From: a virus
DNA length: 64,000 nt
Direction: 5' to 3' (one strand)
Virus record (IMG/VR): IMGVR_UViG_3300009147_000001
Coordinates: 32,001 to 96,000 of that record
The notes under the pieces are model-generated. The model was not told the origin of the DNA, did no database searches, and saw only the letters and a program-made list of their open reading frames with translations. The position numbers and the translations under genes were made by a program. Within the stretch, counting starts at the first letter, position 1, and each line of letters begins with the position of its first letter. Of this stretch, positions 45,472 to 63,088 are shown piece after piece.

Positions 45472-45516
45472 GTTTGCCTCCTCATTGAGAGCAAGTGTAA
45501 GCGTCATTGACAGCTT

Positions 45517-45546
45517 TGTCTAGCATGTGCTATGGTCCGTTGTCAA
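45517..45546 (-). promoter_or_regulatory. candidate promoter for the structural operon
   Basis: On - strand: TTGACA-N18-TAGACA, preceded by TGC. Confidence 0.45.
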
Positions 45547-46316
45547 AAAATTGACGAATTACATAATAAAATATTGACGCTTTATTATATCTAGGCTATA
45601 CCTCGATATCGCAGATATTATTTGAATTAGCTAACACGATAATTCAAACCGTCAAAATATTATAATTCAATAACTCACCAAAAACAAGGAGGACCCTGCC
45701 GGAATGTCCTTTTTATACCGTTTTGTTATAATATAGTTATTTTGTTCACATTTAATAACATTAATACCATTTCATACCCTTTTATGTGGTTTGTCCCATT
45801 TATACTATTATATCAGGATATCGAAATGCCTGAATTATCGTAAATTGGCGATTTATCCATTCAATCGGGTAAATACGACATATACGATATGTCGCATTTG
45901 GCGATTTATAAGCATAAGGGGTGAATTACTAGCATAGTGGGTGAAATATCGGGACATTTCGGACATATCGGGTCTACAGATGGCGCCATGTGGATCAAAA
46001 AAGTGTCCAAAATATCATAACTTGTTCTGAAATGTCCTATTTTGTCACCATTTTTATGCGTATTTTAGCCCAGATTTTTGAGCCCATATATACTAGTAAA
46101 TCCGGACATTTACGCATATAACCAACATTTGGGACTGTGCTATAGTGGTGATAGCGGGGGAAAAGGGACATAAGGTGGGAAACGGAACTTTCGGAAGTAT
46201 CCGAAAAGCCGGGGAAATCCTACCAAATCGTACTTTGACAAGACAATAGAGGAAATGCAGGATCTATCCGGATCTAAGGGGCTATGTCCAGACAAAAATG
46301 GACATAGGAGGACAAA

Positions 46317-47145: not shown

Positions 47146-47247
47146 ATAACGGACATTCCAGACGTAGCATCATAAATCCGGATAGAACAGGACTAAGTCG
47201 GGTTTAGGGTCCATGTGCCGTAAAAACGGACACAGAGGACAAAAACC

Positions 47248-47841: not shown

Positions 47842-48266
47842 CAGCCAAAAGCGGCACATGGGCTCCAATCCCGACTTAGTCAGACATACTCTCCTATATC
47901 CTGCCATGCCCGGACAAAACGGACATTAGGCACTTAATAGGCGGTTCACACTTTGTCACCATAAGGTTCACTGTCAGGTTTCCGACAGATCAACATCCCT
48001 TTTGGGGTCTTGTGCTCAGAAATATCGTACATGTCTAGATTTAACCGCATATATCAGGGCAAGTTTTGGCATGATATAAGCGAAGAATCGGACATATCAC
48101 GAAAACCCGGGCGGAGTAGACTGGAGGAAACAGGTGGGAACGGAAGCATCCGGCAAATCCGGACAGCCCGGGGAAACCCTCCAAAATCGGACATTGACAC
48201 CTAAACAGTGACAGACGAGGGCTTACCCGGCCCTATCCTCTCATGTCTGGGCGGAAACGGACAGAA

Positions 48267-48509
48267 ATGGACATTTACCACATTCACCCATACATGGTAC
48301 GACCCGTCCGAAGCTGCACCAAAGCAGACATCCAGCGCCAAATGGACAGACTTCGCAGCGAGGGACAGATCGAACCTATCGTGGTAAAACCGCCGAAAAT
48401 GGGACAATACGAGCCAGATCGGGAGCATCCCGACTACTGGTACTACTCACCCGAAATGGTCGAAGCGGCCATAAGGCTCGGATGGGATGAAATACTCGTA
48501 ACCTACTAA
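48267..48509 (+). CDS. small protein with weak ParB-N-like pattern (IR cassette 5)
   Basis: LRSEGQIEPIVV...AAIRLGW; AAACGGACA leader. Confidence 0.65.
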   Translation: MDIYHIHPYMVRPVRSCTKADIQRQMDRLRSEGQIEPIVVKPPKMGQYEPDREHPDYWYYSPEMVEAAIRLGWDEILVTY

Positions 48510-48629
48510 TCTAGTAGATGTCTAGACATGAGGGGTTAAGACCGGGTAAGCCCTAGGTTGTACGGATTTGTAGCGGTATGTCCAAGAATCCCCAAGATCA
48601 ACAGCTAGAAACGGATAAAGGGGACAAAA

Positions 48630-48854
48630 ATGGACAATCAAGGCAAGCTCAGCAAAGTACACAACATGCTCGAAAAGGGACAGATCAGCCTAATCGACGC
48701 ACAGGTGTACATTGACGACATCTCCCGCGAAACCAGCGCATTGTGGGGCCAGTACCCCAAAACCCTCCAGAGCTGCCCATTGTGCACCATCGGGATGGTC
48801 CGGATGATCGTGTACTTTCTGCGCATTCGCGACGGTTCGGTCGTAGCTGACTAA
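48630..48854 (+). CDS. small hypothetical protein (IR cassette 6)
   Basis: AAACGGATAAAGGGACA leader; enclosed by IR pair. Confidence 0.7.
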   Translation: MDNQGKLSKVHNMLEKGQISLIDAQVYIDDISRETSALWGQYPKTLQSCPLCTIGMVRMIVYFLRIRDGSVVAD

Positions 48855-48903
48855 CACCAGCAAAAAGGACATACCGCTACATGTCCGTACAAAAGGAGGG
48901 AAG

Positions 48904-49101
48904 ATGGCCGTAAAATGGCCAAAACGGATATTCCCCTGGGAAGAGCCCATGTCGGACTACGCACGCAGAGCGCGCATGGCCGACAAAACGGACAAGGAGC
49001 CCAAAATCCACGTATCGGTGCACATCAGGGTAACTGCCACCGAACGGGCATTACGGTTCGATTTCAGCAAACCGGACCAAACGGAGCTGTGGGGCTTCTA
49101 G
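48904..49101 (+). CDS. hypothetical protein
   Basis: AAGGAGG RBS. Confidence 0.6.
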   Translation: MAVKWPKRIFPWEEPMSDYARRARMADKTDKEPKIHVSVHIRVTATERALRFDFSKPDQTELWGF

Positions 49102-49223
49102 GAAGGAACGGACAATGTTGACACTTAGGGCACACTGGCGCAAAGCGCGCTGGGCCTGGACAAGCCGGCGAAACGGACAGTACCGGTTCAAGGTACATTC
49201 CGTCTAGAACGGAGAAAACGGAC

Positions 49224-49364
49224 ATGTCAGACAAAGACCTCGAATACCTCAACTGGCTCGAAACCGTCCTGTGGGACGAAACGGAGAAATCGTACATCTC
49301 CGACTTCCTGCGCTTTATGGCTGCATTCGACCATTACGTCGGAAGGTACCGCAAAAACGGCTAA
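49224..49364 (+). CDS. hypothetical protein (46 aa, not in ORF track)
   Basis: GGAGAAAACGGAC-ATG; reads MSDKDLEYLNWLE...; hairpin begins at its stop. Confidence 0.6.
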   Translation: MSDKDLEYLNWLETVLWDETEKSYISDFLRFMAAFDHYVGRYRKNG

Positions 49365-49448
49365 TCGGACAGTTTACATCATACGCACCATATGGTGCGT
49401 ATGGTGTAACCTGCCCGAGAGCAGGCAAAACGGACAAAGGAGCAAACA

Positions 49449-49739
49449 GTGAATAACTGGGCATCCGGGATCTACTACCCAGATACGAAAAGCACGAACG
49501 AATTCGTGTCCAACACGACATTTGGGCATGCACTACGCACCATGCTCAAAGAGGCCCAAGAGCGGACAAACGACGCTTACGACAACAACGACCACGAAAC
49601 TGGCAAAATGTACGAAGTGCTCGTTGCAGACATTCGCGACATCGCCGACGACGAGGGCATCATGGACGATCCGGACATGTGGGAGGAACAGACCTTTTAC
49701 CTCGATGACGACACCGAGTGGTACATCGGACAATACTGA
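49449..49739 (+). CDS. acidic hypothetical protein
   Basis: AAACGGACAAAGGAG leader. Confidence 0.7.
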   Translation: MNNWASGIYYPDTKSTNEFVSNTTFGHALRTMLKEAQERTNDAYDNNDHETGKMYEVLVADIRDIADDEGIMDDPDMWEEQTFYLDDDTEWYIGQY

Positions 49740-49816
49740 CATCTAGGTCGTTCTCATCATAGGTGACTTTCTGGTCACCTATGGCGAAATCCACCTAGAC
49801 AGGAGGAAAACGGACA

Positions 49817-50050
49817 ATGGACCCAACCCAGACATTGCGGGACATGCTCAACCTTATCCAGCAAATCGGACAACTCGCCACATTGGAGGGTCATCTACGC
49901 AATCTGGACGAATTGAGCGAAAAGACCGCAGACCTGCGCGAATGGCTCCTCAATGGAGGATACGCCCCAGATCTACTATTCTTCCACACAGCGGACGAAC
50001 TCCCGCAGTTCGCCCAAATCGACACGAGACTGGAGAATGAAGACGTCTAG
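49817..50050 (+). CDS. hypothetical protein (MDP...L.EWL..GG.AP pattern)
   Basis: AGGAGG RBS; resembles the C-terminal half of 56565-56765. Confidence 0.7.
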   Translation: MDPTQTLRDMLNLIQQIGQLATLEGHLRNLDELSEKTADLREWLLNGGYAPDLLFFHTADELPQFAQIDTRLENEDV

Positions 50051-50134
50051 GTCGTTCTAGTCCAAGATGGGCATTGCGCCCATCTCGGGCTAAATCCACC
50101 TAGACGTGGAGAAACCAACACAAAAGGACATGAA

Positions 50135-50335
50135 ATGGACATCCAGGACATCATCGACAATCCCGTCTTCATGGACAAAGCGGCGCAAAACCTCATGATT
50201 CTGCGCATCCTGCGCAAGCTGGGCGTAGACCTCAATGAGGTCTTGCCGGACCTTCCGGACGGAGTGAGCATCGACGACATTCACGCCCTTCTGGACGATC
50301 TGGACGAATTCCTCCTGACGGGCGTATCCGTCTGA
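50135..50335 (+). CDS. acidic hypothetical protein
   Basis: AAAGGACA leader. Confidence 0.65.
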   Translation: MDIQDIIDNPVFMDKAAQNLMILRILRKLGVDLNEVLPDLPDGVSIDDIHALLDDLDEFLLTGVSV

Positions 50336-50686
50336 AATCGGACAGGATCGGACGAATGAAGGTAAATCGGACAAAAGGCGGATGGCTGGTCATAGGCACC
50401 AGAAAGGAACTACACGACCTTACCATACCGTACATCATCAAACCGGACACATGCATCAAAAACCGGTAAATCGGACATCTCGGGTCATTCTGGGGCAAAA
50501 GCCCCAGAGTGGTCAAATATGCCCGAAACGGACATATCAGACAATCAGAACGTATAGGGGCATACCGGGCATATGGGTCAAAATGGACATAGCGCTCCCT
50601 GAATAATCATGGGAGAAATCCTGGCAATTGGGCCTAATTGCGTCCAATTGGCCAAACCACGTCCAAACGGACAAAAGAGGGTAAAA

Positions 50687-50893
50687 ATGAGCAATGAGGG
50701 TACAATTGACGACCAGGGTAAATCCCACATCTGGGTCGTTCAGGGCTATTACCAACCATACGGGTGGGAAGACCTCACCGCGGAGGAAACCTACCCAGAA
50801 GCCCTGAAACGGAAGAAAGAGTTCATAGACAATGAAGGTGGTAAGTACCGCATCAAAGTCTACATAGACCCAGAAACCAACACCGATTGCTGA
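50687..50893 (+). CDS. hypothetical protein
   Basis: AAACGGACAAAAGAGGG leader; VVQGYY..YGWED motif. Confidence 0.7.
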   Translation: MSNEGTIDDQGKSHIWVVQGYYQPYGWEDLTAEETYPEALKRKKEFIDNEGGKYRIKVYIDPETNTDC

Positions 50894-50960
50894 ACCGGAC
50901 AGATCGCATCAATCACGGCATAAGCCGTGATCGGTGCCATCGAGCCCGAATCGAACAGAA

Positions 50961-51209
50961 ATGGACATCATGTCACTAAAGGTAGGAACCATCATCACTC
51001 GGTACCATCCACTCCTAAGAGAACTAACGTGTGAAGATGGAGTATGTGTGGGCAAGATACTACGAACGTTCACATACGCCAACTATCATCACGTAGAAGT
51101 CACATGGTGGGAAACCTGCTCATATCACAACTACGACACATCAACAAACACATATCTCTTCCTCCACGACGAGATATGGGAAATCGGACAAATCCCGGAA
51201 ATCTCCTGA
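50961..51209 (+). CDS. hypothetical protein
   Basis: Lies between two related hairpins. Confidence 0.65.
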   Translation: MDIMSLKVGTIITRYHPLLRELTCEDGVCVGKILRTFTYANYHHVEVTWWETCSYHNYDTSTNTYLFLHDEIWEIGQIPEIS

Positions 51210-51283
51210 ACCGGACAGATCGCATCATTCTTGGCACTGTGCCAAGAATGGTGCAATGTGCCTGACACAGAGGAGAAACGGAC

Positions 51284-51961
51284 ATGACGAACAAGGTAGA
51301 CACACTACGCCACTCCGACTTTACGGTCGAATGGATCGACCCGAATGATATCTCCACCATTCGGGACAGAGGCTACGTAAATCCCTATCAACTGGACAAA
51401 ATCCCACATAAGGGGGCAATCCCGTTCGTTGATCTCGGATCGGTTGCAGCCGGCGAAGACACCGCAAACCAGACATCCACCGTCAACCGGTCCAATTACC
51501 GAAGACTACGCGAAGACTACCCAACCGTGTTCATCAACGTCAGCTATTACAACGTGGACACATTGGGTGCGATCGTGCCAGATCTCCCCGATGAGGTCAT
51601 CAACCTCCTTATCGGATTAAAAGAGGACTATCCGCTCTACGACGAGGAAGACCTCTGCAATCTGGAGGATGAGGAAATAACGGACTCCTGGGACCAATGG
51701 GTTCGATCCGACGTTTCCTCCATCATCATCGAAAAGCTCTCTTACGCCGAGGATGAGGACACCCTCGACACATGGTACAAAATGGACAAAGAGCACGAAG
51801 CAGAGCTTTTCTGGCGATGTGTGGAGGATCTGGACAGATACCCCGAACACAGCGGTATTGAGGTCATCTGGAACGATCTGGACAAAATCGCCGAAAGGAT
51901 GATCCGCTACCTTTCCGGGGAAATTACGCCAGTTCCGGACGATCAAGCACCTTTGTTCTGA
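51284..51961 (+). CDS. acidic phage protein (DYPLYDEED motif)
   Basis: GAGGAGAAACGGAC-ATG; 225 aa. Confidence 0.78.
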   Translation: MTNKVDTLRHSDFTVEWIDPNDISTIRDRGYVNPYQLDKIPHKGAIPFVDLGSVAAGEDTANQTSTVNRSNYRRLREDYPTVFINVSYYNVDTLGAIVPDLPDEVINLLIGLKEDYPLYDEEDLCNLEDEEITDSWDQWVRSDVSSIIIEKLSYAEDEDTLDTWYKMDKEHEAELFWRCVEDLDRYPEHSGIEVIWNDLDKIAERMIRYLSGEITPVPDDQAPLF

Positions 51962-52030
51962 TTTGGTGCGAAGCGTATCATAAGATACGCTTCGAGCCAT
52001 GTCAGCGCAAGGAGGGAACAACGGACAATC

Positions 52031-52204
52031 ATGACACTTAAGACAATAAGAACAACAGTAGACAAAATAGCTGGAATGTACACGTATCAGCTCAGAATCG
52101 TCGAAAACGGACTAGAAACGGACAAAGTAGTCATTATCCGGGCTACTAACCCACTATACCTCGAAAAGGATACGTGGGTGGAAATAGACTTTCCCGACGA
52201 TTAG
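52031..52204 (+). CDS. hypothetical protein (57 aa, not in ORF track)
   Basis: AAGGAGG...AACGGACA leader; between two hairpins. Confidence 0.6.
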   Translation: MTLKTIRTTVDKIAGMYTYQLRIVENGLETDKVVIIRATNPLYLEKDTWVEIDFPDD

Positions 52205-52290
52205 AACATTATGGTCATAGTTCGCAGACCATGCGAACTATGGCCATCCTATTCTCATCTGCCAGACCAAGAAAAACAAAGATCATTATG

Positions 52291-52319
52291 TTGTCAAGAT
52301 CTTGACACACTGGTAGGCT
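52291..52319 (+). promoter_or_regulatory. promoter with palindromic operator-like site over the -35
   Basis: TTGTCA-N17-TAGGCT; perfect 16-bp palindrome TGTCAAGATCTTGACA at 52292-52307. Confidence 0.6.
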
Positions 52320-52324
52320 GACAG

Positions 52325-52760
52325 CACACGGGGACATCGGGATCACGATACTACGGGCCAAAACCCCGAAAGTCATGATGCCCATTGAATCGGACCTATA
52401 GTGCATAGACTGCGCTATCCGCTTGAAAAAACCATAGTGACTTTTCTGCCACGGGCAGGCTGACGCACCCGCGTCACCCTAGCCCGTTGGGCTCCCAGTG
52501 ACCAGCGTATACGCCCTGTATGGGCCGCTAGCACACGATCCCGCCACGGTGGTACCCCGAGGTATCAACCGTCACGGATCATGGCGCAGCGTGGCGCTCA
52601 GCGCGTTTTCCCTGGTCACTGACCTATGGTCGGGTAGGAACAAAAGCGCAAAAACGCGATGACAGGATAAATCGGACACTTCGTTCATTATCCTCATATC
52701 ATCCTGAGTAGCGTAATAACGTCCTATCCGTGCCATAGGCCACGAAAGGAGCCGACTGCT
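52325..52760 (+). ncRNA. candidate structured non-coding RNA
   Basis: No + strand ORF in the track; GC-rich nested stems, e.g. CAGTGACCAG/CTGGTCACTG; downstream of a promoter. Confidence 0.4.
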
Positions 52761-52838
52761 CGTGAGGTTCTGCTCAGAAACGTGCTAGCAGTCACGTTTC
52801 TGGTCAAAGTCTCATGAAACGGACACAAGGAGACAAAA

Positions 52839-53930
52839 ATGGACAAAGACCAACCTATCATCATCGTTGGGGGATCTCTGACCGGACCGGTTATGTCACT
52901 CTTATTGATGAATGCCGGATTTAGCAACGTTCACCTCTATGAGGCAATTCCACCCAATATTTCCCCATCAGGTGGAGTAATCGGACTTGACCACTACGCC
53001 CTGGACGTACTGGAAAGTGTCGGAATCATCCAGAACGAGATCATTCCGTTCACGTCTGAGCGCGTCATTGCTATCAAACTACGCTCGGGCACCGAAAACC
53101 AGACATTCTACCCAGGACGCAACACCACGTGGTCAATTCTGCACACTGCACTCATGCGCCGAATGCCGGACAATCACTACCACCCGGGCAAGAAGGTTAC
53201 GAGTGTGAATACTGGATACATCGGATTTTCGGATGGTAGCACGACAGAAAGTGCATTCACCATCTTTGCCGATGGACGCCGCTCTACTGGACGAAAGCTG
53301 CTCGACCCAACCCGAAAGCTCCATTACGCCGGATATGTAGCGCACCGAGGCATTCTCGACCGGTGTCCTCCTGACATTCGCGACTTCCTGCGCTTTGAAG
53401 GGCAAGACACCGCATTTAACGTCTTTCCCATCATTCAGGATAACGGGGCAATCGGCATGGACTGGACATTCTACCTCAACACGTCAGAACCGGATTTTCG
53501 CCAGCATTTCGGTGCATCACCGGTCGTAAAGACCTTCATGCACCAAATCCCTTCTGATGTAACTACCGTGGTCGATTGTGCCGCTACTCGCACACTCACG
53601 GAGCAAACCGCACATCTTGTGCACTCAACTGCAACGCGGATGGCGGTGCCCATCGTGGACATCGACCAGCCAACTACCATGATCTTCAACAACGGGTCAA
53701 GCGTGCTCATTGGTGACGCACTGGCCCCGGTTCGCCCACATACCGCTAGGGGCGCCAATAATGGGATAATAGCCGCCCAGTCGCTCATGGTAGCTTTGCG
53801 CCATCATGTCAACCATGGAGCAAATCTCCTTTCCGCCCTAAAAGGTTGGGAGTCACGGCTTTTGCCTACTATCCACCAAGATGTAGCCAATGGGCCTATT
53901 ATGGGCGCTAAGCTCGGATTGGGAGGCTAG
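52839..53930 (+). CDS. FAD-dependent monooxygenase (2,6-dihydroxypyridine hydroxylase-like)
   Basis: IVGGSLTG, FADGRRS, YAGYVAHRG and LIGDA...RPHTARG motifs. Confidence 0.85.
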   Translation: MDKDQPIIIVGGSLTGPVMSLLLMNAGFSNVHLYEAIPPNISPSGGVIGLDHYALDVLESVGIIQNEIIPFTSERVIAIKLRSGTENQTFYPGRNTTWSILHTALMRRMPDNHYHPGKKVTSVNTGYIGFSDGSTTESAFTIFADGRRSTGRKLLDPTRKLHYAGYVAHRGILDRCPPDIRDFLRFEGQDTAFNVFPIIQDNGAIGMDWTFYLNTSEPDFRQHFGASPVVKTFMHQIPSDVTTVVDCAATRTLTEQTAHLVHSTATRMAVPIVDIDQPTTMIFNNGSSVLIGDALAPVRPHTARGANNGIIAAQSLMVALRHHVNHGANLLSALKGWESRLLPTIHQDVANGPIMGAKLGLGG

Positions 53931-54098
53931 ATGACCAAAGCCAAAGACCTGGAACCAGGAGATCAGATAAAGCTAGAAATAGACGGTGTGGTTAACACAG
54001 AACGCCCAGACGGGTCAACCTGGACATATCTCTATTTCACCACCACCACTGACACACTGTACATACCGAGCGATAGCGACATATCTACCGAGTCATGA
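53931..54098 (+). CDS. hypothetical protein (55 aa, not in ORF track)
   Basis: GGAGG RBS; starts MTKAKDLEPGD. Confidence 0.6.
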   Translation: MTKAKDLEPGDQIKLEIDGVVNTERPDGSTWTYLYFTTTTDTLYIPSDSDISTES

Positions 54099-54170
54099 CG
54101 CTCTAGTGCAAAGCGTACTATACGGTACGCTTTGTGCTATACCGCCATGAAACGGACAAAGGATCACAAA

Positions 54171-54509
54171 ATGTCACACTTCCACGTAGGCCATAACATG
54201 CCGGGCTATCTGCCCGAAAGCGACATCATGTGTTTCGATAATGCAGAAGACGCAATTCGAGCCCTAGGGGATGAACTGGACAAAGCTATCGACACCCTCT
54301 TCGAATTCAACAATTCTGCTCTCAAGGACACACTCTACGCAATAGTAGAAATCTACCAGGATGGAACATCCCCGGAGTTCTGCGACGTTACATACGAACT
54401 GCATGAAGGTCGCAGCGTCCGACACAGAGTCGACGGGTATGAATACTGGATCGAACCGGTCAATCACGCCTATGACGTCTGTGAATGTCGAGAACCGTAC
54501 CTAGAGTGA
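54171..54509 (+). CDS. hypothetical protein (GHNMPGYLPE motif)
   Basis: AAACGGACAAAGGA leader; between two hairpins. Confidence 0.72.
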   Translation: MSHFHVGHNMPGYLPESDIMCFDNAEDAIRALGDELDKAIDTLFEFNNSALKDTLYAIVEIYQDGTSPEFCDVTYELHEGRSVRHRVDGYEYWIEPVNHAYDVCECREPYLE

Positions 54510-54686
54510 GGTTCTAGTCATATCCGACTAACCTAGTCGGATGTGGCTAAATCCCTATGAAAGGATGAAAAAATGGCACTATGGAATGCAACCGTGGCAG
54601 TTGCCATTATCAAGGCACGCCGCCGAGGAGACAACGAATTCGCCCAATTCCTCAAAACCCTTCTCTTCTAGACCTACGGAACAGAA

Positions 54687-54869
54687 ATGGACGAACCATA
54701 CGACAACGGTGATCCGGTTACATTCTGCACGGAATGCAATCATGCCGACATCAAACACACATCGTTTGAACCAGACGAATGGGACGAATGGGCCAATGTA
54801 CTTAAATGCCAGGAATGCGGACAATTGTGCTGGAATGCCCAATTCGTCACCCTGGAGTACCTGATCTGA
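54687..54869 (+). CDS. small zinc-ribbon protein
   Basis: CTEC...CQEC. Confidence 0.6.
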   Translation: MDEPYDNGDPVTFCTECNHADIKHTSFEPDEWDEWANVLKCQECGQLCWNAQFVTLEYLI

Positions 54870-54909
54870 TCGAGGAGGAACGAGACAATTCAACAGAATA
54901 GGATAATCC

Positions 54910-55191
54910 GTGCGTAAATTACTCAAATCAGACCTAACCGTCACAAATCCACCACAACCTCGCCAACCATCACCATACCGAGAAGCATGGACAATTGACT
55001 TCCATGACCGCACATCGGTCATTGTCTTCACATATGACACCATGGTAGCAATTGTCAGAAAGACGATAGATCACGTCCCATTGCACCATGGTAATACCAA
55101 AAAGGTGCATTATCAACTCATAAAGTGGATGGATGACGATAAAGGGTACGAAATTCTTAGCTCGGTAGAAATGGACATAAAACTCATCTAG
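54910..55191 (+). CDS. hypothetical protein
   Basis: AGGA upstream; same strand as neighbours. Confidence 0.55.
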   Translation: MRKLLKSDLTVTNPPQPRQPSPYREAWTIDFHDRTSVIVFTYDTMVAIVRKTIDHVPLHHGNTKKVHYQLIKWMDDDKGYEILSSVEMDIKLI

Positions 55192-55312
55192 ACAGTTATG
55201 GTGTGGATCGGACAAAACATAACATATAACAATCATACCCCGATTCACGCCATATCTACCTAGACCGGGTAGATAACCAGAAAACCAACACACAGAAGGA
55301 TACATCACCACA

Positions 55313-55699
55313 ATGGATCTCAGTGCCTATATGTACGACAGTGACGGATTCAACGCCAATGGTCGCGACAAGTACGGCTATAACCGCAACGGTTATGACC
55401 GGGAGGGTCTCAACCGTGACGGTCTGACCAGCGATGGTTTCAGCGCCCAAGGATGGAACGCCGAAGGACGCGACAAGCGCGGCTTTGACGCCAATGGTCG
55501 CGATGTGAACGGTTTCGACCGGTATGGCTGGGACAAGGATGGTTTCAACCGTGATGGCCTCAACGCTGACGGCTATGACCGCGATGGCTTCAGTAAGGGT
55601 GGATTCAACCGGTATGGCTACAACCGCGACGGCAAGACGCGCCAGCAGGTCTACATCTACAACGAAAAGGGTGAAATCCGCCCGGACCTGACCGCCTGA
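55313..55699 (+). CDS. pentapeptide G(Y/F)(D/N)xx repeat protein
   Basis: About 20 repeats such as DGFNANGRDKYGYNRNGYDREG. Confidence 0.8.
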   Translation: MDLSAYMYDSDGFNANGRDKYGYNRNGYDREGLNRDGLTSDGFSAQGWNAEGRDKRGFDANGRDVNGFDRYGWDKDGFNRDGLNADGYDRDGFSKGGFNRYGYNRDGKTRQQVYIYNEKGEIRPDLTA

Positions 55700-55764
55700 C
55701 CGTTTTCGTCATAGACGGCACAGCCGTGTCGTCTATGGCGAAATCGACCAGGAAAGGACAAATC

Positions 55765-56088
55765 ATGACCACCTACGGCAAAGCACGTGAAGAGACCATC
55801 AACGCTCTCATTGAACGAAAGCCGTTCATGAGATCAGGCTTCGGCATGAAAGCCTTCAACCGGGCAACGGAACTAAGAGGTCGACTTCCCGAAAAATGGG
55901 TCAATGAGTACGCAATAGACGAACTCGAAGGAATAGTCTATACCGTCGTTTCCTACATGACTCCCATTGCTTGGGTAAAAAGGGACGGAACCGTTGTCAT
56001 TCCTGACATATACTATTCCCCCACCACATCAGCCCATCAGGGACTATGCCGGACATACCTTACCTCCGGTAAAGGATATAACACCTGA
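55765..56088 (+). CDS. conserved phage protein (YTVVSYMTPIAW...YSPTTSAHQ)
   Basis: GAAAGGACA leader; recognisable motif. Confidence 0.75.
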   Translation: MTTYGKAREETINALIERKPFMRSGFGMKAFNRATELRGRLPEKWVNEYAIDELEGIVYTVVSYMTPIAWVKRDGTVVIPDIYYSPTTSAHQGLCRTYLTSGKGYNT

Positions 56089-56223
56089 ACCGGACAAAAG
56101 GATGAACAATGATATACTTCCGACGACGCAAGCCAAACAGTCATAGGTGGGACTTCTAGGTTCGTTTAGTGCAATTGGTCCCATGCGGACCAATTGTGCT
56201 ATGCAAACCGAGAAAGGACAATA

Positions 56224-56568
56224 ATGGACAAAACACTCGAAAAGGCTAGAGCGCATAATAACATGCCATTCGTCATCTATTTGATGAACGCCGTGATGCG
56301 CACACCAACGTACCAATCCAATCAAAGCACCTATGCCTTCTGGTTGTGGTACCAAGCGATTAGATGGGACTATCGGGACAAAGATCCTGATCCTATCAGC
56401 ATAAAACGGATTTATCACAAAGACCTGATCGGATGGGACGTCAACGGCAGAGACTGCGAGGTGTGCCATATGCACCCGCATAGTCACGACTGGATGGACC
56501 TGGACATTAACGGCTTTGCCGTCAATTGCTCCAATATCGACAGAACATCACCAGTGAGCACGATATGA
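56224..56568 (+). CDS. hypothetical protein
   Basis: GAAAGGACA leader after a hairpin. Confidence 0.65.
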   Translation: MDKTLEKARAHNNMPFVIYLMNAVMRTPTYQSNQSTYAFWLWYQAIRWDYRDKDPDPISIKRIYHKDLIGWDVNGRDCEVCHMHPHSHDWMDLDINGFAVNCSNIDRTSPVSTI

Positions 56569-56765
56569 GCAAAGAGACACACATCAACAGCATTCTCGCC
56601 ACAATGCGTGAAATTCACGCACTCAGCACAACGGACGTTCATGCCTACCTCAAGCGCCAGCGGGAATTTCTGGAGCTATGGGAAGAACTGGACAAATTCC
56701 TACAATCAGGCGGCTTCTGGCCAAACATGACTATCGTGCGAAACGGATGGTTTCTAGAGAAATGA
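56565..56765 (+). CDS. hypothetical protein
   Basis: ATGA-coupled; LDKFLQSGGFWP. Confidence 0.6.
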   Translation: MSKETHINSILATMREIHALSTTDVHAYLKRQREFLELWEELDKFLQSGGFWPNMTIVRNGWFLEK

Positions 56766-57025
56766 GCACATATCACATACGATATAACAATGGGTCTCCG
56801 GCAGACAATCTATCCCGAGCGCAGCTCGAAGGAGCCATAGCGTCCTGGTTGACGAAAAATCCGTCCACATCCGACGATAGTAGCATCCATACCGTCTACA
56901 TCACGGTCAACGACCGAATGGTACCTATGCGCATGCATACGTACGGTCATGACAATGGGACATTCACTGTACTATTGTCACTCGCCGGAGTTACCATCGA
57001 AAAGTTCACCATAACCGTACAATAA
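56762..57025 (+). CDS. hypothetical protein
   Basis: ATGA-coupled. Confidence 0.6.
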   Translation: MSTYHIRYNNGSPADNLSRAQLEGAIASWLTKNPSTSDDSSIHTVYITVNDRMVPMRMHTYGHDNGTFTVLLSLAGVTIEKFTITVQ

Positions 57026-57034
57026 CTCCATAAC

Positions 57035-57076
57035 GGACATAGCAGGCATAGCAGACATAGCAGACATAGCAGACAT
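57035..57076 (+). repeat. 9-bp tandem repeat (AGACATAGC, about 4.5 copies)
   Basis: ggacatagc aggcatagc agacatagc agacatagc agacat. Confidence 0.85.
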
Positions 57077-57302
57077 ATGTGTATACAAGGTGCTATATAG
57101 CCCTATGTGGTCTATATAGTGCCTTCCGTACATATAAGGCAATTCGCGCAATTCTGTCCAATTGGCCAATTCTGGGTCAATTGGCCAAAATGAGGATAAA
57201 TCTGCGGGGGCCTTCGTCATAGCCTCGCTGCCCCACAGCAGGGGTGGCTCAGGGTAAATATCCCCGACATCCACTAAACTACACACAAAGGATAAAACGA
57301 CA

Positions 57303-57482
57303 GTGGAATACGAAAAGCACCGTAATGCTCAGGTTGACAGTAATGGTAATAACACCAAGTTTGCCGCCAAAAAGCGTAAGCGCCGTCGCCGTACCACACT
57401 CACCCCGGAGGCCATCTCGCGGCTATCCAACCGTGGTCCTGATCTTGACTCGCGCACTGCTGGCACCTCGTTCATTTGGTGA
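57303..57482 (+). CDS. small basic protein (59 aa, not in ORF track)
   Basis: AAGGA upstream; MEYEKHRN...KKRKRRRRT. Confidence 0.5.
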   Translation: MEYEKHRNAQVDSNGNNTKFAAKKRKRRRRTTLTPEAISRLSNRGPDLDSRTAGTSFIW

Positions 57483-58554
57483 CAGATTACCGTCATAAGC
57501 TGCTGACAAGATCGTGATGCATCAACCAACACTGATAAAGAATCCTATTAGTTGGGAGTAAAAACAAATAAAAACAGGGGACAAATCACCCAAAACCGGG
57601 ACAAGCGTGGACTTTGTTGCTCATGATCTTTTTGGGTACTCTTCCAGGAGCGCGATATTCCTGTGAGAACAAAACCGACATCTCGGTCTTTTTGATTTCG
57701 AGAATCAGTCCAAAACGGACAAATCGTCTCGTAAGGGATGTTAATTCGTAGGCGAGAAAACGCGTACCTTCGTCCAAAGCAGGGGAACAGACTCTTTCAG
57801 AATATGATGGTTTGTCCTGTGACGCACTTCACAAGATCACAAGCCATCCAGGAATCGGGACAATTCGGACATTCTAGACATTTCACCCGATATCTAGACA
57901 AACCACCACGAAAGCCACGTAAAACATCACCCTCCCCTAACAACCCCGCCCCCCTCACCACGAAAAGGTCCGCAGATCCACATATCCGCAACTAAGGGTA
58001 ACTAAAGTCCTATTTAAATAGGGACAAAATAGGACATACTAGGCGTGGGAGCGCTTCCAATGACAGTTTATTGACTGACGGATTAGCTTCTTATCCGATA
58101 ATATTCGCTGTCTACTCATCCGTTCGTACTAAGCATACCTACCCGAAAGTGAGTGGATCTCTCCTGTTGGATGAATAGATCACCTACTCTTGCCGTTTAT
58201 CCGCTAACACATTAATTGTCAACACATCCAAATCAGACCCCACATGCAGCTCATCCCTCACAATCCATTCACTACAATAAGTACTGTTTATTTTTAAACA
58301 CCAACATCATCCGTTCGGAGGATGTCAAGATACTTAAGATAACGTTTATTCCCTGACACATTGACCGTTCCCTATTAACTTGTCGATCCCTATCAATTTC
58401 CACCTGCGGCGCGCGGTGCCTGCCTGTGGGGGTCTGTCATGTCCCGCAGGGCCTCATGGATAGACTTATATCGAACTAACCGTGCGTTCGTTGGGCCAGA
58501 GCCTGATGGCACCCAACCTCGTTTTTCCTTTTCTCACTGAGTCCTGTTTGGTCA

Positions 58555-58583
58555 TTGACACAATAGTTGTTTTCTGCTAGGCT
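58555..58583 (+). promoter_or_regulatory. SigA/HrdB-type promoter, probably leaderless transcript
   Basis: TTGACA-N17-TAGGCT with TG extension; ATG lies 6 nt after the -10; no SD sequence. Confidence 0.75.
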
Positions 58584-58589
58584 CAACGG

Positions 58590-59486
58590 ATGGCCATCAA
58601 ACGAGTCGATGACATTCTCATCATTCTCAACGCAAACCTGATGTGGGACAGTCGAGTCATGGATTTGCCCATTGAGGCAAGTATGGAAACAGCAATATGG
58701 CTAGATGCGCTATACACCAAGACCTTACTAGACAGTGACGCCAACCCAGACTTTTTGAATTCAGACCAATTAACCAAGAGTCAACAGCGTAAACTTAACT
58801 GGGTGACTCAAGCGCAAAGCTCGCACATTGGCCTCAATAGTGGCGAGGTGCGCGCCTGGTACGCGTGTTTGCGTACGTACAAACAACCACTTGTTAGTAC
58901 CGACAAAAGGCTCACCGAGACTGGCTTAGCGGTGGCTGAGCAGATTTATGACATTTTGAGCACAGCGCGGCAAAAGGATAAGGCCATTGTTGACCCTAAG
59001 CAGTGGACCCAAGCCGACCAAGCAATTCTTCGCGGCCGGCTCACCTGGCGTCAGGTGGGATTGCTGGCCATTATTTATGCCGCGCTCGATGAGGCCATTG
59101 CGCGCTACGATGCCGATACTCCCGCGTTGCCCACTCCCGAGCGCACCGCAGGAGCGGATTTGACTTTGGCGGTAACGACACGTATTCGCACCGAATCCCC
59201 GATGGCGTACTTATCCGGTGATATCAACAATTACGCCGAAACCGTGCATGCCATTGCTTATGTGCTAAATGCCAAGACCCCGGACAATCCAGACATTACC
59301 GCCTTTGTCCCGATGAGCAGCTTGGGGGGTAAAGGCAGAACGGACACGGCTGAGTTGGCGAAATTGGGCCTCATTGACATACGTACCGTGCACGATGGCT
59401 CCCGAGGCCGGCCCAAGGTTGGCATTTCGCCCACCCGGTGGGGCACGTTGTTGCTGCGTGAACTCACACTTCGGCACTTGATCTGA
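58590..59486 (+). CDS. unknown protein with possible C-terminal winged-helix
   Basis: 298 aa; ELAKLGLIDI...RGRPKV...TRWG resembles a wHTH wing. Confidence 0.7.
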   Translation: MAIKRVDDILIILNANLMWDSRVMDLPIEASMETAIWLDALYTKTLLDSDANPDFLNSDQLTKSQQRKLNWVTQAQSSHIGLNSGEVRAWYACLRTYKQPLVSTDKRLTETGLAVAEQIYDILSTARQKDKAIVDPKQWTQADQAILRGRLTWRQVGLLAIIYAALDEAIARYDADTPALPTPERTAGADLTLAVTTRIRTESPMAYLSGDINNYAETVHAIAYVLNAKTPDNPDITAFVPMSSLGGKGRTDTAELAKLGLIDIRTVHDGSRGRPKVGISPTRWGTLLLRELTLRHLI

Positions 59487-59628
59487 GCTATCCAACCCAG
59501 CACAGCAGAAAAAATCTTGAAAAATGCTGCACCAGTGGGACTAGCAGGCCCTACGGGTGTGTTATAGTAGGTGTACCGGCAACACCGCCGTACACCAAGG
59601 TTTCCAAACCGAAAGGGACACACCGACC

Positions 59629-60357
59629 ATGACTACCAGCACCGACCCGGGCGTGGACATCTTTGCCGAGTTGCCAACGATGGACTCGCCGGCAACCACG
59701 ACCACGACCGAAACCACCACGGACACGAACACTGACACGGACACGAACACTGACACTGACAACGCTGAGCAGGTAGAAATCGACAACCGCGTCATTCTTG
59801 ACGAGGCACCCGACGGTACCGTGTCCGTCACCGAGTTCGCTCAGCTCATGACCAGGGAGGCTTTCCTGGCCGTACATAACGCTGGCGGCGAGTTCACTGG
59901 CCGCGAGATGGTCTTGCCTCAGGACGTCTACCAGGCGGTTCGGGCCAAGAACAACCCGGTTCCGCATGTTTTGGTGGCAAATCCTGACTCGGACAAGGCA
60001 CCTCGTATTTACATTCTGCTCGACCAGGCTCGGTCGGTTTGGGCCGACCGGGTAGCCCGTAATGCCTCCCGGGGCACCGGAGTAACCACCACGTCCAAGC
60101 GTGACCTTGACGAGCTGCGTGAGCTGTTCCCGAAGGCACTGGCCAAGCGGTTCTACGCCACCGAGCGCGCGGAGCTGTGGGCGGCTCGACGCGATCAGGC
60201 GGTCGCGCTGACCGACAAGTACGTGACCTGGCTGGGCGAGCACGGCACCTCCGACGAGGATATCGAGGCCATTCGGGCGCAGGCCTGGACTGCCTACACG
60301 GCCGAGCGCGAGGCTACCGCAGCCAAGCGTAAGCGCACCACGGACTCATCCGAGTAA
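59629..60357 (+). CDS. hypothetical protein with Thr/Asp-repeat N-terminus
   Basis: GAAAGGGA RBS; GC3-rich codons; TGTTATAGT extended -10 near 59560. Confidence 0.75.
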   Translation: MTTSTDPGVDIFAELPTMDSPATTTTTETTTDTNTDTDTNTDTDNAEQVEIDNRVILDEAPDGTVSVTEFAQLMTREAFLAVHNAGGEFTGREMVLPQDVYQAVRAKNNPVPHVLVANPDSDKAPRIYILLDQARSVWADRVARNASRGTGVTTTSKRDLDELRELFPKALAKRFYATERAELWAARRDQAVALTDKYVTWLGEHGTSDEDIEAIRAQAWTAYTAEREATAAKRKRTTDSSE

Positions 60358-60742
60358 CAAGCCATTCCATGATGGTCTTTGGTGATAGCCAGTAGCAATA
60401 CTGGCTATTGCCATGGATAATCACCGAAGATTAAACAAAAAGGACGATAAACATTGGAAGTATAACTGTCGCTCTTAACAGTATAGCGGCAGCTTAGGTG
60501 GAGGTGTACAATACAGGCAAAGACCTCCTCCATACAACAAAAAGTATACTATGTATTAAGTCGGTGCAGCGTTTTACGCTACATCGGTCGGATGTGGGAC
60601 AAAAGGTATTCTAGAGTACTGACAAAACCCACACATCATATAAAACGGAATAAGTCATACGCGAGCCACGCGTTTCCCTGGCCAATCCACGAGGATAGAC
60701 AACAATTGTTGTCTATCCTCTTGTGGTATGAATAAAGGATAA

Positions 60743-61231
60743 ATGAAATCAATTCGAGAAAAGGATGCAAAAGTGACACATCAGAGTAACATTGATAGCC
60801 TAATCGAGTTCGTTCAACTCATGGACGACATGGAGGCATCCCTAGCCATCGTTCGTCCGTATGTCGAACAGTTCAGTACTCTCCAGAAGGACGGGTATAG
60901 CATGAGTTCGATGTATGCAAACATACAGCGAAACGTCACGTCTATGAGCGATACCGTGCACGGCGTGCTGCGGCGGGCGGTCCGGGATCAGGCTGCCCAG
61001 CAACGAGAGCACGAGGAGCTCGACTCTCATGATCAAATTGGTGGACATCGAGTGCTTATCGATGATGTATGGGGTGGCAACGACGACGAAGACAATGATG
61101 CCTATATGTACGGTAATGATCCCGAGGATTGTGTACCAGAGTCAGATGTTGTCGATGGTGATGACGAGGATGAACACGGCAATACACTATCCGTTCGTCA
61201 GCTCACCGAGGAAAATACCAAGGAAACATGA
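60743..61231 (+). CDS. acidic hypothetical protein
   Basis: AAGGA RBS. Confidence 0.65.
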   Translation: MKSIREKDAKVTHQSNIDSLIEFVQLMDDMEASLAIVRPYVEQFSTLQKDGYSMSSMYANIQRNVTSMSDTVHGVLRRAVRDQAAQQREHEELDSHDQIGGHRVLIDDVWGGNDDEDNDAYMYGNDPEDCVPESDVVDGDDEDEHGNTLSVRQLTEENTKET

Positions 61232-61449
61232 TGGCCCTTGATGAATACGTAAAAGAGGTCATTGTCGAGGTTTTGTGCGATCTGGCACTGGCTGATCATC
61301 TTAGTGATGTGCGTCATGCGGAGCGCGGGCTGTGGGACCTGCTGGGCATACGTCATCCAATCTATGATCACGATAGTGCCTGGCAGAATACTAAGGCCAC
61401 CCTGACTCGGGCAGGCATTGCCCTGCCCGACTATCTGTCCGAGGATTGA
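61228..61449 (+). CDS. hypothetical protein
   Basis: ATGA-coupled; hairpin at its stop. Confidence 0.65.
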   Translation: MMALDEYVKEVIVEVLCDLALADHLSDVRHAERGLWDLLGIRHPIYDHDSAWQNTKATLTRAGIALPDYLSED

Positions 61450-61520
61450 TAGTTTTTAGTGGTAGGCATTCGACGGAATGCCTATCGCCATGAATTATCA
61501 ACGAGCAAAAGGACACAATT

Positions 61521-61820
61521 ATGAGACTCAGTAGACCATGTTATGATAAGTACCATCGCTGCCCAGGTTGGGTCGGTGGTGGTGGTAAGTACGCCAAAAC
61601 AACCAGATGCAATAACGGCAGGATTATGGTAAACTACGATAACAATTGGTGGCGTTGGGCGGTTCACCGCTGCAATACCTGTGATGTTGTCGTATTCCCG
61701 TACTATGCACATTGGCTGGACCCCACCTGGTTGTGGTATGAGCTGAAGTGGTTTCTGCGCAATCCTTCAGATAGATTGTACAGCATGAAACTACGCATCA
61801 TGGGATGGTTTATCCGATGA
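61521..61820 (+). CDS. Cys/Trp-rich hypothetical protein
   Basis: AAAAGGACA leader; CYDKYHRCPGW. Confidence 0.68.
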   Translation: MRLSRPCYDKYHRCPGWVGGGGKYAKTTRCNNGRIMVNYDNNWWRWAVHRCNTCDVVVFPYYAHWLDPTWLWYELKWFLRNPSDRLYSMKLRIMGWFIR

Positions 61821-62128
61821 TAACCATAACACCAGGAGCAATTCGAGTCTCGACGGTCCGAACCATTCATGATCTCGATGAGGTCAAGGTCTGGGAAATA
61901 GACTTACACTCGAAATATGCCGAAGTGGTATTGTATAGTGGAAATGCCGTCGGCCTGGGTGCCAATGACCATACGCTCAATACAGATACTGATAGGGAAA
62001 ATTCGCTTACGTGGATTCAATTGCCGATACCTGACGATTGGACGCTCATTGCCATATGTTCCCGGTATACCTGTCGAGTTGCCGCTTGGTTGGAAAAAGA
62101 GGGAAAAATTAAGATAGAACTGGAGTAA
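61817..62128 (+). CDS. hypothetical protein
   Basis: ATGA-coupled. Confidence 0.6.
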   Translation: MITITPGAIRVSTVRTIHDLDEVKVWEIDLHSKYAEVVLYSGNAVGLGANDHTLNTDTDRENSLTWIQLPIPDDWTLIAICSRYTCRVAAWLEKEGKIKIELE

Positions 62129-62133
62129 GCTAA

Positions 62134-62370
62134 ATGCCAATTCTGAATAATAAATATGATCATGTCAAGGTCTATCGACCCAGTGGTACCAAGTATGCCG
62201 TTGGGGTAAGTAAGGATGTCGATGACCTGTACGTGGCAATTGGGTTCGCTAAGGAATCCTTTCTCGCCGAGTTCGGTCGGTACCCACAGATGAATAAAAC
62301 AGTCATTGAGATAATAATTACTGATAAGAGTATCATGGCACTCATCTACGAAATACCGTGGGATGAGTGA
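62134..62370 (+). CDS. hypothetical protein
   Basis: GGAG RBS. Confidence 0.6.
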   Translation: MPILNNKYDHVKVYRPSGTKYAVGVSKDVDDLYVAIGFAKESFLAEFGRYPQMNKTVIEIIITDKSIMALIYEIPWDE

Positions 62371-62796
62371 TGCTGCGCTATCTTAGTGTCATGGGTATTA
62401 TTCTGGCTACCGTGGGTGGCATCACCATTGTCATCAGTGTGGACCAATTCTGGCGTGGCTGTATCGTCTATGGTGTCGGCGCGCTGACGATGGTGGTCGT
62501 AGAATGGATGGATGATTAGCTGTGTTCTTCTCGATGTCCCAGACGGTAACTGACGGGAATTTACAATGGCAAAATAAACATTGCCCTGCGCTATGCAGGT
62601 CCCATAATGGATTATTTGCCATTCTCGTGGGTGTTCATGGACGGTACCTTCAGCAGAGACTGGATAATCAATAATGTTCATAGTTTATGTTCTCAGTCTC
62701 GGCCTAGTGCTCTGGCTGTGGGTGTTGACCGCCTTAGCCGCAGTGTTCCACATTCTGGCCCGAGCAATTCTTCACACCTGAAATGGACAACCAAAA

Positions 62797-63021
62797 ATGG
62801 ACACTTGGTATGAAGTCGAGCACTACCTCGAAGATTTCGGCGAGTGGTGGATCGACAATGATCCACAATTCAACCCCGCGCACCCACGCTGGCCCAGTGA
62901 GCAGTCGGCTATCCAGCGGGCAAATCAGATTTTCCGGATGCTTGGCCATAACACTAAGGTGATAAAGGTCGAGCAAAAGAGAACGACTGTTTACGACATC
63001 GTGCGTGATGGTTTTAAATGA
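62797..63021 (+). CDS. hypothetical protein
   Basis: GGACA leader; hairpin at its stop. Confidence 0.6.
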   Translation: MDTWYEVEHYLEDFGEWWIDNDPQFNPAHPRWPSEQSAIQRANQIFRMLGHNTKVIKVEQKRTTVYDIVRDGFK

Positions 63022-63088
63022 TAGTTTTTAGTGATGGACATTCAATCGAATGTCTATCGCTATGAATTATCAACGATGGGACTGCTAT

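Follow-up and report, generated by a model that had tools for sequence, protein, structure and literature searches.

Intergenic hairpins with an invariant U·G wobble form a conserved RNA element family in the early region of an uncultured soil phage

Introduction

What is the role of a strong hairpin that recurs between the small genes of a phage, each time with much the same geometry and a different sequence? The question is raised by a 64,000-nucleotide stretch of viral DNA (hereafter the window) that comprises bases 32001-96000 of a complete IMG/VR virus record of 110,163 bp with direct terminal repeats (IMGVR_UViG_3300009147_000001). A preliminary description of this DNA, made by reading its letters, noted about 15 intergenic hairpins between 49365 and 63072 and proposed that they are processing sites similar to the RNase III sites of phage T7. 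Here we report that the hairpins belong to a real and conserved family of cis-acting RNA elements, marked by a U·G wobble that does not vary, and that a sister family occupies the equivalent location in related genomes. We then weigh what the hairpins might do; for processing between cistrons by a host RNase III-type enzyme the chances seem to us about even.

Results

Hairpins at the gene junctions of the early region

Folding of 64-nt windows on both strands, together with a dedicated stem finder, gave 18 hairpins between 49365 and 63072 (Table 1), and strong local hairpins were concentrated at 49.3-63.1 kb. The free energies of the 18 ranged from -25.8 to -40.6 kcal/mol and their z-scores from -4.5 to -9.95; for any one of them, 0 of 200 dinucleotide shuffles folded as well. 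The existence of the elements was therefore confirmed, since all of them beat their shuffles, but the earlier count of about 15 proved too low. A genome-wide catalogue listed 28 hairpins on the + strand, with their concentration at genome positions 81-100 kb; the same count in a shuffled genome came to 3. The 17-18 sites of the window fall within 14 kb, and no hairpins were found among the late genes.

The hairpins were always oriented along the coding strand. In 16 catalogued copies the stop codon of the upstream open reading frame (ORF) lay between 10 nt before and 9 nt after the first paired base of the hairpin, so that the 5' arm of the lower stem usually includes the stop. From the 3' end of the hairpin to the next start codon there are 10-31 nt, which is space for a ribosome-binding site and not for a promoter, and a promoter scan gave no promoter-like match in these spacers. 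About 20 gene junctions lie at 49.2-57.5 kb and 13-14 of them have a hairpin; by our reading of the gene map, the junctions without one are those of overlapping or closely spaced genes.

Each hairpin is built of a lower stem of 3-10 bp and an upper stem of 11-18 bp, set apart by 1x1 mismatches or, as with the TTC/AAT of three copies, by a small loop; the whole helix is 19-26 bp long (median 23). The 10 nt behind the hairpin contain 0-2 T in all copies except one, so that there is no U tract, and a terminator scan picked up none of the 18. A beginning at a stop codon, a lower stem, a small mismatch, an upper stem and the lack of a U tract had all been described from the sequence, and the positions, folds and T counts bear this out.

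Table 1. Hairpins and other features of the early region, in window coordinates
Feature	Position	Strand	z-score	Remarks
Hairpin 1	49365..49418	+	-8.7	stop TAA 49362-49364 abuts lower stem; 16-bp upper stem; U·G is pair 11 from loop; 46 bits with model R2
Hairpin 2	49742..49799	+	-7.0	outer arms in common with hairpin 3; TTC/AAT internal loop
Hairpin 3	50043..50107	+	-8.3	outer arms of hairpin 2, other apex; stop TAG within 5' arm
Hairpin 4	50471..50526	+	-5.9	lower stem TCGG(A)CA / TG(C)CCGA
Hairpin 5	50891..50953	+	-4.5	outer sequence in common with hairpin 6
Hairpin 6	51206..51270	+	-5.8	sole window match of the relatives' model R1 (E 0.003)
Hairpin 7	51955..52008	+	-7.5	stop TGA within 5' arm
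Hairpin 8	52199..52259	+	-7.8	upper-stem base GGUCAU/AUGGCC, the copy nearest to the T7/T3 core GGUC/GGCC
Hairpin 9	52760..52817	+	-5.3	directly upstream of FAD-monooxygenase gene 52839-53930
Hairpin 10	54093..54150	+	-6.2	tandem U·G/G·U at upper-stem base
Hairpin 11	54509..54556	+	-5.8	TTC/AATC loop; TAAATCC in 3' strand
Hairpin 12	55695..55752	+	-8.0	18-bp upper stem; top R2 score, 51 bits
Hairpin 13	56154..56214	+	-6.9	family member
Hairpin 14	57074..57138	+	-4.8	upper-stem base AAGGUG/GUGCCUU
Hairpin 15	60365..60428	+	-6.3	behind gene 59557-60357; orthologous hairpin behind the homologous gene in G006 (5925-5989, minus strand)
Hairpin 16	60683..60730	+	-6.5	outlier: near-perfect palindrome without U·G, unrecognised by R2
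Hairpin 17	61446..61501	+	-8.3	paralogue of hairpin 18
Hairpin 18	63019..63072	+	-9.95	paralogue of hairpin 17
Two sigma-70-like promoter matches	45507..45567	+		TTGACA-18-TATGGT with TG; TTGTCA-16-CATAAT; consensus match only
Candidate canonical terminator of the operon	57674..57697	+		ACCGACATCTCGGT then CTTTTTGATT, after the last small gene; weak match

Covariation around a wobble that does not vary

The 18 hairpins were aligned with plain MAFFT, and the pairs were taken from the RNAalifold consensus (alignment A2). Seventeen of them form one alignable sequence family with the consensus GTTnTnGTCATA..CG..TATGGCnAnAT; the remaining one, hairpin 16, is perhaps a different element. Fourteen of the 15 upper-stem pairs of the 17-copy family have changes on both sides, and the only pair that does not vary is a U·G wobble, present in every one of the 17 copies. 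Its distance from the loop-closing pair is 11-13 bp; counted upward from the first interruption, it is typically pair four. Neither this alignable family nor the invariant wobble had been noted in the preliminary description. Pairing in the alignment was 91.9%, a percentage that is partly circular as the copies had been selected as hairpins, compared with 57% with shuffled partners and 29-43% with slid partners, and 0 of 500 shuffles matched the observed value. The invariance of the wobble is not circular in this way, because a single transition would strengthen the U·G pair. G·U pairs outnumbered A·C 45 to 26 in the window, despite an A/C-rich strand.

Comparison of individual copies agreed with what had been read from the sequence by eye. 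The pairs 49742/50043 and 50896/51211 have their outer sequence in common and their apex replaced, and between 61446 and 63019, for which a compensatory change and wobbles had been reported, alignment A2 contains one G-C to A-U double change, two switches between wobble and Watson-Crick pairs and one repaired A·C. A covariance model of the window family (model R2, 17 seeds) recovered its 17 seeds, on the + strand only, and also matched non-seed copies in two related genomes, G003 and G006. One of these non-seed matches is the orthologous site behind the homologue of gene 59557-60357, where the base and the wobble are kept and the apex has been wholly replaced.

A sister family in related genomes

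No relatives were found by way of two local proteins (51284-51961 and 60743-61231); a search with the portal protein reached two complete relatives of 75-81 kb, G001 and G003. When the early region was compared with five relatives by DNA search, it shared only short patches with them, so that an orthologous alignment of most hairpins was impossible. G001 and G003 nevertheless have equivalent hairpins at the equivalent location, despite almost no early-region DNA in common with the window. Sixteen copies of this sister family (alignment A1) follow the pattern TTAGTTGC.TTGCATGG...GTGTTGCACAACTAA, in which a 7-bp lower stem holds the stop codon and two 1x1 mismatches, with 2 bp between them, lead on to the upper stem; compensatory changes were present in all 21 of the 21 pairs.

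The covariance model of alignment A1 (model R1) found 23 copies in G001 and G003 together, with sense scores of 27-69 bits (the 20 strongest, 41-69) and antisense scores of about 20 bits; for the two models together, R1 and R2, scores of 35-69 bits in the sense direction stood against at most 30 bits in the antisense direction. An exact-pattern scan of viral contigs with the 3' arm of the relatives returned 93 stretches, nearly all of them chance, and the only new genome with the family was G006, a third complete genome and, like G001 and G003, one from IMG/VR, in which model R1 found 7 copies. Alignment A3 brings together 28 rows from model R1, 12 of them non-seed and 5 of these from G006. 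The 12 non-seed copies are 95.2% paired, with 43 G·U against 2 A·C, and for all 28 copies the counts are 94 and 6. The U·G stands at the fourth upper-stem pair in 26 of the 28.

Covariation, the excess of G·U over A·C against the composition of the strand and covariance-model scores in the sense direction only establish that the hairpin structure is selected in the sense single strand. Because the hairpins are also bound to the ends of genes and point the way that transcription runs, the selected form is most likely RNA. We conclude that the hairpins are a real, conserved family of cis-acting RNA elements. Selection on RNA structure had been proposed in the preliminary description, with a covariance model and a scan of phage genomes as the means of checking it; the model was built, the relatives were scanned and the covariation was there.

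Two members in G003 have an extra 25-30 nt in the apical loop, L045:9585-9669 (29585-29669) and L045:4468-4548 (24468-24548). The second of these has a base of the window type, TTTAGTGC...GTGCTATG, and so links the two sequence families. Gene order also differs between the relatives: the gene at 34923-35261 of G003, the homologue of 60666-61085 in G001, stands before two neighbours in G003 and after them in G001, with hairpins of the R1 family at the junctions of the moved gene (G001 60.4-62.3 kb, L051; G003 34.8-37.0 kb, L045). This suggests that a cassette has moved by recombination between repeated hairpins. The repeated hairpins mark cassette boundaries where genes have moved between relatives.

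Folds of the RNase III sites of T3 and T7

For comparison we used the T3 record NC_003298 (L164), in which ten stem_loops are annotated as 'RNase III recognition site', and the corresponding loci of T7 (L063 and L064), whose intergenic hairpins are established RNase III sites, the T7 record itself being without such annotation. Four of the ten T3 sites (R0.5, R4.7, R6.5 and R18.5) overlap the end or the stop codon of the upstream coding sequence. When folded, the T3 sites consist of 8-10 bp of lower stem and 9-11 bp of upper stem, mostly 19-20 bp in total, with an A·A mismatch and a TC/TAT loop between the two; a U·G is the fifth pair above the loop in 7 of the 10. The corresponding T7 early intergenic hairpins have the same AAGGUC...GUGGCCUU core as T3; R0.3, R0.5, R1, R1.1, R1.3 and R4.7, with the core GGUC/GGCC, again have the U·G as fifth pair when counted up from the internal loop. 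The T3 and T7 sites are likewise a paralogous family, with a conserved stem base, the wobble and a variable apex.

Gene-enclosing stems and a polar GGACA motif

Upstream of the hairpins, six consecutive small genes at 46261-48892 each lie within their own pair of inverted repeats of 26-38 nt, which are 82-94% complementary (I5, I2, I3, I6, I1 and I8), and the right arm of one such cassette abuts the left arm of the next. The preliminary description had suggested that these stems may be further forms of the hairpin element whose loop holds a gene. This part of it is weakly supported: the inverted-repeat pairs are there, the stems have a two-tier design of outer stem, small mismatch zone and inner stem, and the sequence TAAATCC is found in two of the right arms as well as in the 3' arms of the hairpins at 50091 and 54548, but by our reading of the arms they do not have the U·G that the family has at the fourth pair. 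A common function of the two kinds of stem is plausible, because with either kind every junction would carry long double-stranded RNA; for a common origin there is no more than a hint.

The same region contains a short polar motif. Over 12 kb (45950-57870) the + strand holds 109 copies of GGACA, with the consensus AAA[CT]GGACA[AT], and CGGACA occurs 80 times in the window compared with 33 expected. The sites lie after stop codons, before or after Shine-Dalgarno sequences and inside coding sequence, and in four hairpins A[AT]CGGACA is the 5' arm of the lower stem. In the relatives G001, G003, G002 and G005 this motif is also clustered and strand-polar, with a switch of strand at about 19,540 in G003. 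CGGACA was considered as a -35 element and rejected, as inspection by eye gave no consistent TANNNT 17 nt downstream of it inside the hairpins.

Operon layout and neighbouring features

The hairpins sit in two runs of small + strand genes. The first extends from the sigma-70-like promoter matches at 45507-45567, which lie upstream of the small-gene operon carrying hairpins 1-14, to about 57.7 kb; the second has its start, before 58590, at a TTGACA-N17-TAGGCT site. With one promoter region, at 45.5 kb, and spacers this short, the small genes of the first run would be covered by a polycistronic transcript. The candidate terminator at 57674 is the sole + strand hairpin with a T run behind it in the terminator scan, in which the number of terminator-like hits was not above that in shuffles. 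Classical terminators, with a hairpin and a T run, are found elsewhere in the relatives (G003 71824-71865 and G001 24899-24936).

Between the two operons there is a gap of 1.1 kb (57483-58590) without a convincing ORF, which ends in the TTGACA-N17-TAGGCT site about 12 nt before the ATG at 58590, so that this start may be leaderless or have a very short leader. A further stretch of about 500 nt without a convincing ORF, 52262-52758, lies between hairpins 8 and 9; it follows a promoter-like TTGTCA...TAGGCT site near 52290, is rich in GC, folds strongly in places such as 52437-52600, does not match Rfam at the gathering threshold, and is a candidate structured non-coding RNA. Two of the longer intergenic gaps contain repeated sequences that may be protein-binding sites: the tandem repeat GACATAGCA (4.7 units, 57036-57077) with the repeat CAATTGGCCAATTCTGGC (2.6 units, 57140-57188) in one, and recurring CAATTGG-type half-sites (50625-50653) in the other. 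Within gene 59557-60357 there is an in-frame 18-nt tandem repeat, CACGGACACGAACACTGA (2.4 units, 59718-59761), of which one unit is missing in a contig from a second rhizosphere sample; the number of repeats thus varies in nature.

The phage and its likely host

By its large proteins, which are a tape measure, a portal, a split terminase, a DNA polymerase and a primase, the genome belongs to a tailed phage. Its portal shares 27-36% identity with the portals of phages of Corynebacterium, Arthrobacter, Gordonia and Mycobacterium, and one small protein has the actinobacterial DUF2637 domain, likenesses from which a Gram-positive, actinobacterial host seems likely. No close cultured relative was found: megablast of 49000-57000 against 50,697 phage records gave zero matches, as did tblastn of the conserved early protein 59557-60357 against phages, and the DNA polymerase is at most 32% identical to those of cultured phages. 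With that early protein unmatched and the polymerase so distant, the phage has no cultured relative and no firm host. The DNA sequencing runs that contain it come from rhizosphere metagenomes, making it an uncultured phage of soil. Contigs of three such runs, compared with the hairpin region, were of the same strain and had zero variants inside any hairpin, so that covariation at the population level was not obtained.

Rfam at the gathering threshold gave zero families over the whole window, and no transfer RNAs were found. Most proteins of the hairpin region have no recognisable family in Pfam, and a Pfam search with 20 of the small ones suggested no RNA-binding protein or nuclease. In five genomes the tyrosine recombinase family PF00589, for which the positive controls matched, and the Y1 transposase family PF01797 were both absent.

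Discussion

A possible role in message processing

Our preferred reading is that the hairpins are intercistronic processing sites for a host enzyme of the RNase III type and also stabilise the 3' ends so formed, a proposal that we hold to be about evenly poised between right and wrong. Polycistronic transcripts made by the host RNA polymerase would carry the hairpins as cis-acting processing signals. A double-strand-specific endonuclease, most plausibly the host RNase III, would take the helix of about two turns as its substrate. Its cut would fall in or beside the weak zone that the 1x1 mismatches or small internal loop form 3-4 pairs below the invariant U·G. The message of the upstream gene would then end in a protective hairpin that blocks exonucleases, that of the downstream gene would begin with a short leader holding AAACGGACA and the ribosome-binding site, and the long early message would be cut into single-gene pieces. 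We infer the cut, the enzyme, the position of the cut and the effect on messenger RNA (mRNA) stability from what the hairpins themselves display, namely their structure, strand, conservation, position and likeness in design to known sites.

Several points weigh against this reading. Families of RNase III and of double-stranded RNA-binding domains (dsRBD) were absent from the five genomes, so that the proposal rests wholly on a host enzyme, as it does for T7. No RNA sequencing runs containing the phage are listed. Sequence homology to the T7/T3 sites is limited to a GU/GC step, and the upper stem, at 13-18 bp and near-perfect, is longer than the 9-11 bp of T7/T3. Substrates of the E. coli enzyme typically have two helical turns, and internal loops limit its cleavage to one strand (Pertzev and Nicholson, PMC1540722). 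The interruptions here are mostly 1x1 mismatches and not asymmetric loops, and in E. coli this would favour double-strand cuts, by which the protective hairpin is removed and not left in place. The determinants named for RNase III are the proximal and distal boxes, and this U·G wobble is not singled out (PMC1540722); the two boxes are defined for the E. coli enzyme and by reference to a mapped site of cleavage. The known rules of RNase III thus do not require the U·G, which leaves the most striking conserved feature unexplained, and some other factor could be responsible. The family could also share its U·G partly by common descent. It is a possibility, too, that the same wobble in the T7/T3 sites is an unappreciated positive determinant of RNase III site choice.

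Other readings of the hairpins

If another factor reads the hairpins, they would be binding sites for a specific RNA-binding protein, or for a nuclease other than RNase III, of phage or host, that recognises the U·G and the weak zone and acts as a global switch of translation or stability, or as a dedicated processing enzyme. An invariant U·G amid covarying neighbours is indeed what a specific contact classically leaves in an alignment, and the known rules of RNase III do not call for it; the hairpins stand only 10-31 nt upstream of start codons, the second conserved polar motif, A[AT]CGGACA, co-occurs with them, and there is no lack of proteins without a recognisable family in the region. We nevertheless think this unlikely, as the search for a candidate protein turned up no dsRBD, no RNase III and no other RNA-binding domain that could be recognised, the T7/T3 sites, which host RNase III cuts, have a wobble in the same position, and a helix held near two turns suits RNase III better than it does a small operator hairpin. 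A wider proposal would combine the U·G, the gene-enclosing stems of 26-38 bp and A[AT]CGGACA into one phage-specific RNA-processing code, with a reader in phage or host that has gone unrecognised in place of generic RNase III, by which each small early gene would be excised as its own message and its stability or translation set; this we regard as quite improbable. Termination is in our view doubtful to a similar degree. The hairpins would then be intrinsic terminators without a U tract, attenuators or pause sites, with read-through by antitermination or a graded expression of the operon, and it is true that they are stable and follow directly on stop codons and that the portal and the DUF2637 protein resemble their actinophage counterparts. 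U-less 'I-shaped' terminators have been proposed for Actinobacteria and are contested. However, the T run is wanting here (0-2 T in the next 10 nt, with one copy excepted), and efficient termination at 13-14 of about 20 junctions in a single 8-kb stretch, with just 10-31 nt from hairpin to next start and no promoter-like site in that spacer, would silence most of the genes. Moreover, stems of 19-26 bp with programmed mismatches go far beyond what termination needs, classical terminators occur elsewhere in the relatives, with a weak one at 57674, and the conserved U·G has no role in termination.

The hairpins could in principle be selected as DNA, the structure of the RNA being incidental, either as palindromic boundaries for cassette exchange by homologous recombination (as with PeSLs) or as sites for a recombinase or transposase of single-stranded DNA (as with attC or REP). 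Copies with common outer arms do flank single genes (49742/50043 and 50896/51211) or a block of 1.5 kb (61446/63019), a hairpin-bounded gene has moved between G001 and G003 (A-B-C-D in one, B-C-A-D in the other), the region is hypervariable among relatives, and PeSLs behave in this manner in T4-like phages (PMC4122927). Against this, G·U far exceeds A·C and the invariant U·G would be an A·C mismatch on the other strand, which shows that selection acts on a single strand and not on the duplex; the orientation always follows the coding strand, neither a tyrosine recombinase nor a Y1 transposase was found in the five genomes, and there are no extrahelical bases of the attC type and no promoter of the PeSL type. 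We therefore consider selection as DNA very unlikely, and recombination at the repeated hairpins is better seen as a side effect.

Should processing by a host RNase III be the correct reading, an uncultured lineage of soil phages would use message cutting in the style of T7, and far more densely, with one site per 1-3 genes and 17-25 per genome, in what is probably a Gram-positive host, where the processing of phage mRNA is almost unstudied. About 45 natural variants of one structure with a single invariant wobble are a ready mutational series for recognition by a double-strand RNase or another reader. The result also offers a hypothesis at the level of RNA for the unexplained start-associated inverted repeats of actinophages.

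Comparison with known systems

The PeSLs (promoter-early stem-loops) of T4-like phages are likewise repeated intergenic stem-loops in hypervariable regions of small genes, where they flank single ORFs and accompany gene gain, loss and displacement; in them the stem-loop is followed by a sigma-70-type promoter and then by the Shine-Dalgarno sequence (PMC4122927). This identification was rejected, as the spacers of 10-31 nt are too short and hold no promoter-like site. The closest positional analogue in actinophages is the ESAS of Cluster K, where, as here, a short polar motif (in Cluster K the SAS) by the start codons is accompanied by an upstream inverted repeat, at non-structural genes only, in one orientation and conserved across related phages beside unrelated genes (PMC3203893, PMC7302621, PMC12699233). 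The arms of the TM4 ESAS are conserved in sequence and near-identical between copies, with a variable spacer (GTGTTGACACCTCAACA...TGTTGAGGTATCAACA), whereas the hairpins described here vary in their apical 8-12 pairs and conserve the pairing by covariation. A sequence-conserved pair of 17-bp inverted repeats was not present, and the 13-bp SAS motif GGGATAGGAGCCC was not found at starts: two matches with at most 2 mismatches were obtained, both on the minus strand, with 1.1 expected by chance. With arms that vary in sequence and no SAS motif, ESAS was rejected. The position of A[AT]CGGACA relative to the ribosome-binding site is also not fixed, unlike that of SAS.

Integron attC sites, too, stand behind the stop codon of each cassette and preserve geometry over sequence, with conserved outer boxes and a variable centre, but they act as single-stranded DNA with extrahelical bases and need the IntI tyrosine recombinase; with symmetric interruptions here and PF00589 absent from the five genomes, they were rejected, as were REP/RAYT elements for want of a Y1 (IS200/IS605-like) transposase (PF01797) in the same genomes. 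Bypass of the gene 60 type, with GGA on both sides of a hairpin, was considered and rejected, since the stop comes ahead of the 5' GGA and none of the downstream genes lacks a ribosome-binding site and start of its own. Intrinsic terminators resemble these hairpins in being stable and directly behind a stop codon; the present helices are two to three times longer, occupy most junctions inside operons and have the invariant wobble. A canonical terminator was rejected because there is no U tract, the hairpins are inside operons and the next gene has no promoter of its own.

The RNase III sites of T7 and T3 remain for comparison. They have no sequence homology to the hairpins, reading AAGGUC...GUGGCCUUUAUGA where the latter read GUUnUnGUCAUA...UAUGGCnAnAU; when the core AAGGUC...GUGGCCUU followed by UAUGA was sought, only the G-C/U·G step and the position of the wobble were in common. 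Because the core sequence is not shared, the element is an analogue of the T7/T3 sites and not a homologue. The two also differ in that the hairpins have mostly symmetric 1x1 mismatches where T7/T3 have a 2x3 loop, and in setting, with 17-18 predicted sites in 14 kb, none found among the late genes and a host that is probably a Gram-positive actinobacterium. The likeness to sites of the T7 R1.1 type claimed in the preliminary description accordingly fails for sequence and holds for five features of design. Like R0.3, R0.5, R1, R1.1, R1.3, R4.7, R18.5 and others, the hairpins are intercistronic, lie in early gene regions and stand at or after the upstream stop codon, which the T7/T3 sites often adjoin or overlap; their lower and upper stems, parted by an internal loop or mismatch, add up to about two helical turns, with 19-26 bp in the hairpins and mostly 19-20 bp in T3; they form paralogous families with a conserved upper-stem base and a variable, covarying apex; they are without a U tract; and 4-5 pairs up from the internal loop they carry a U·G wobble.

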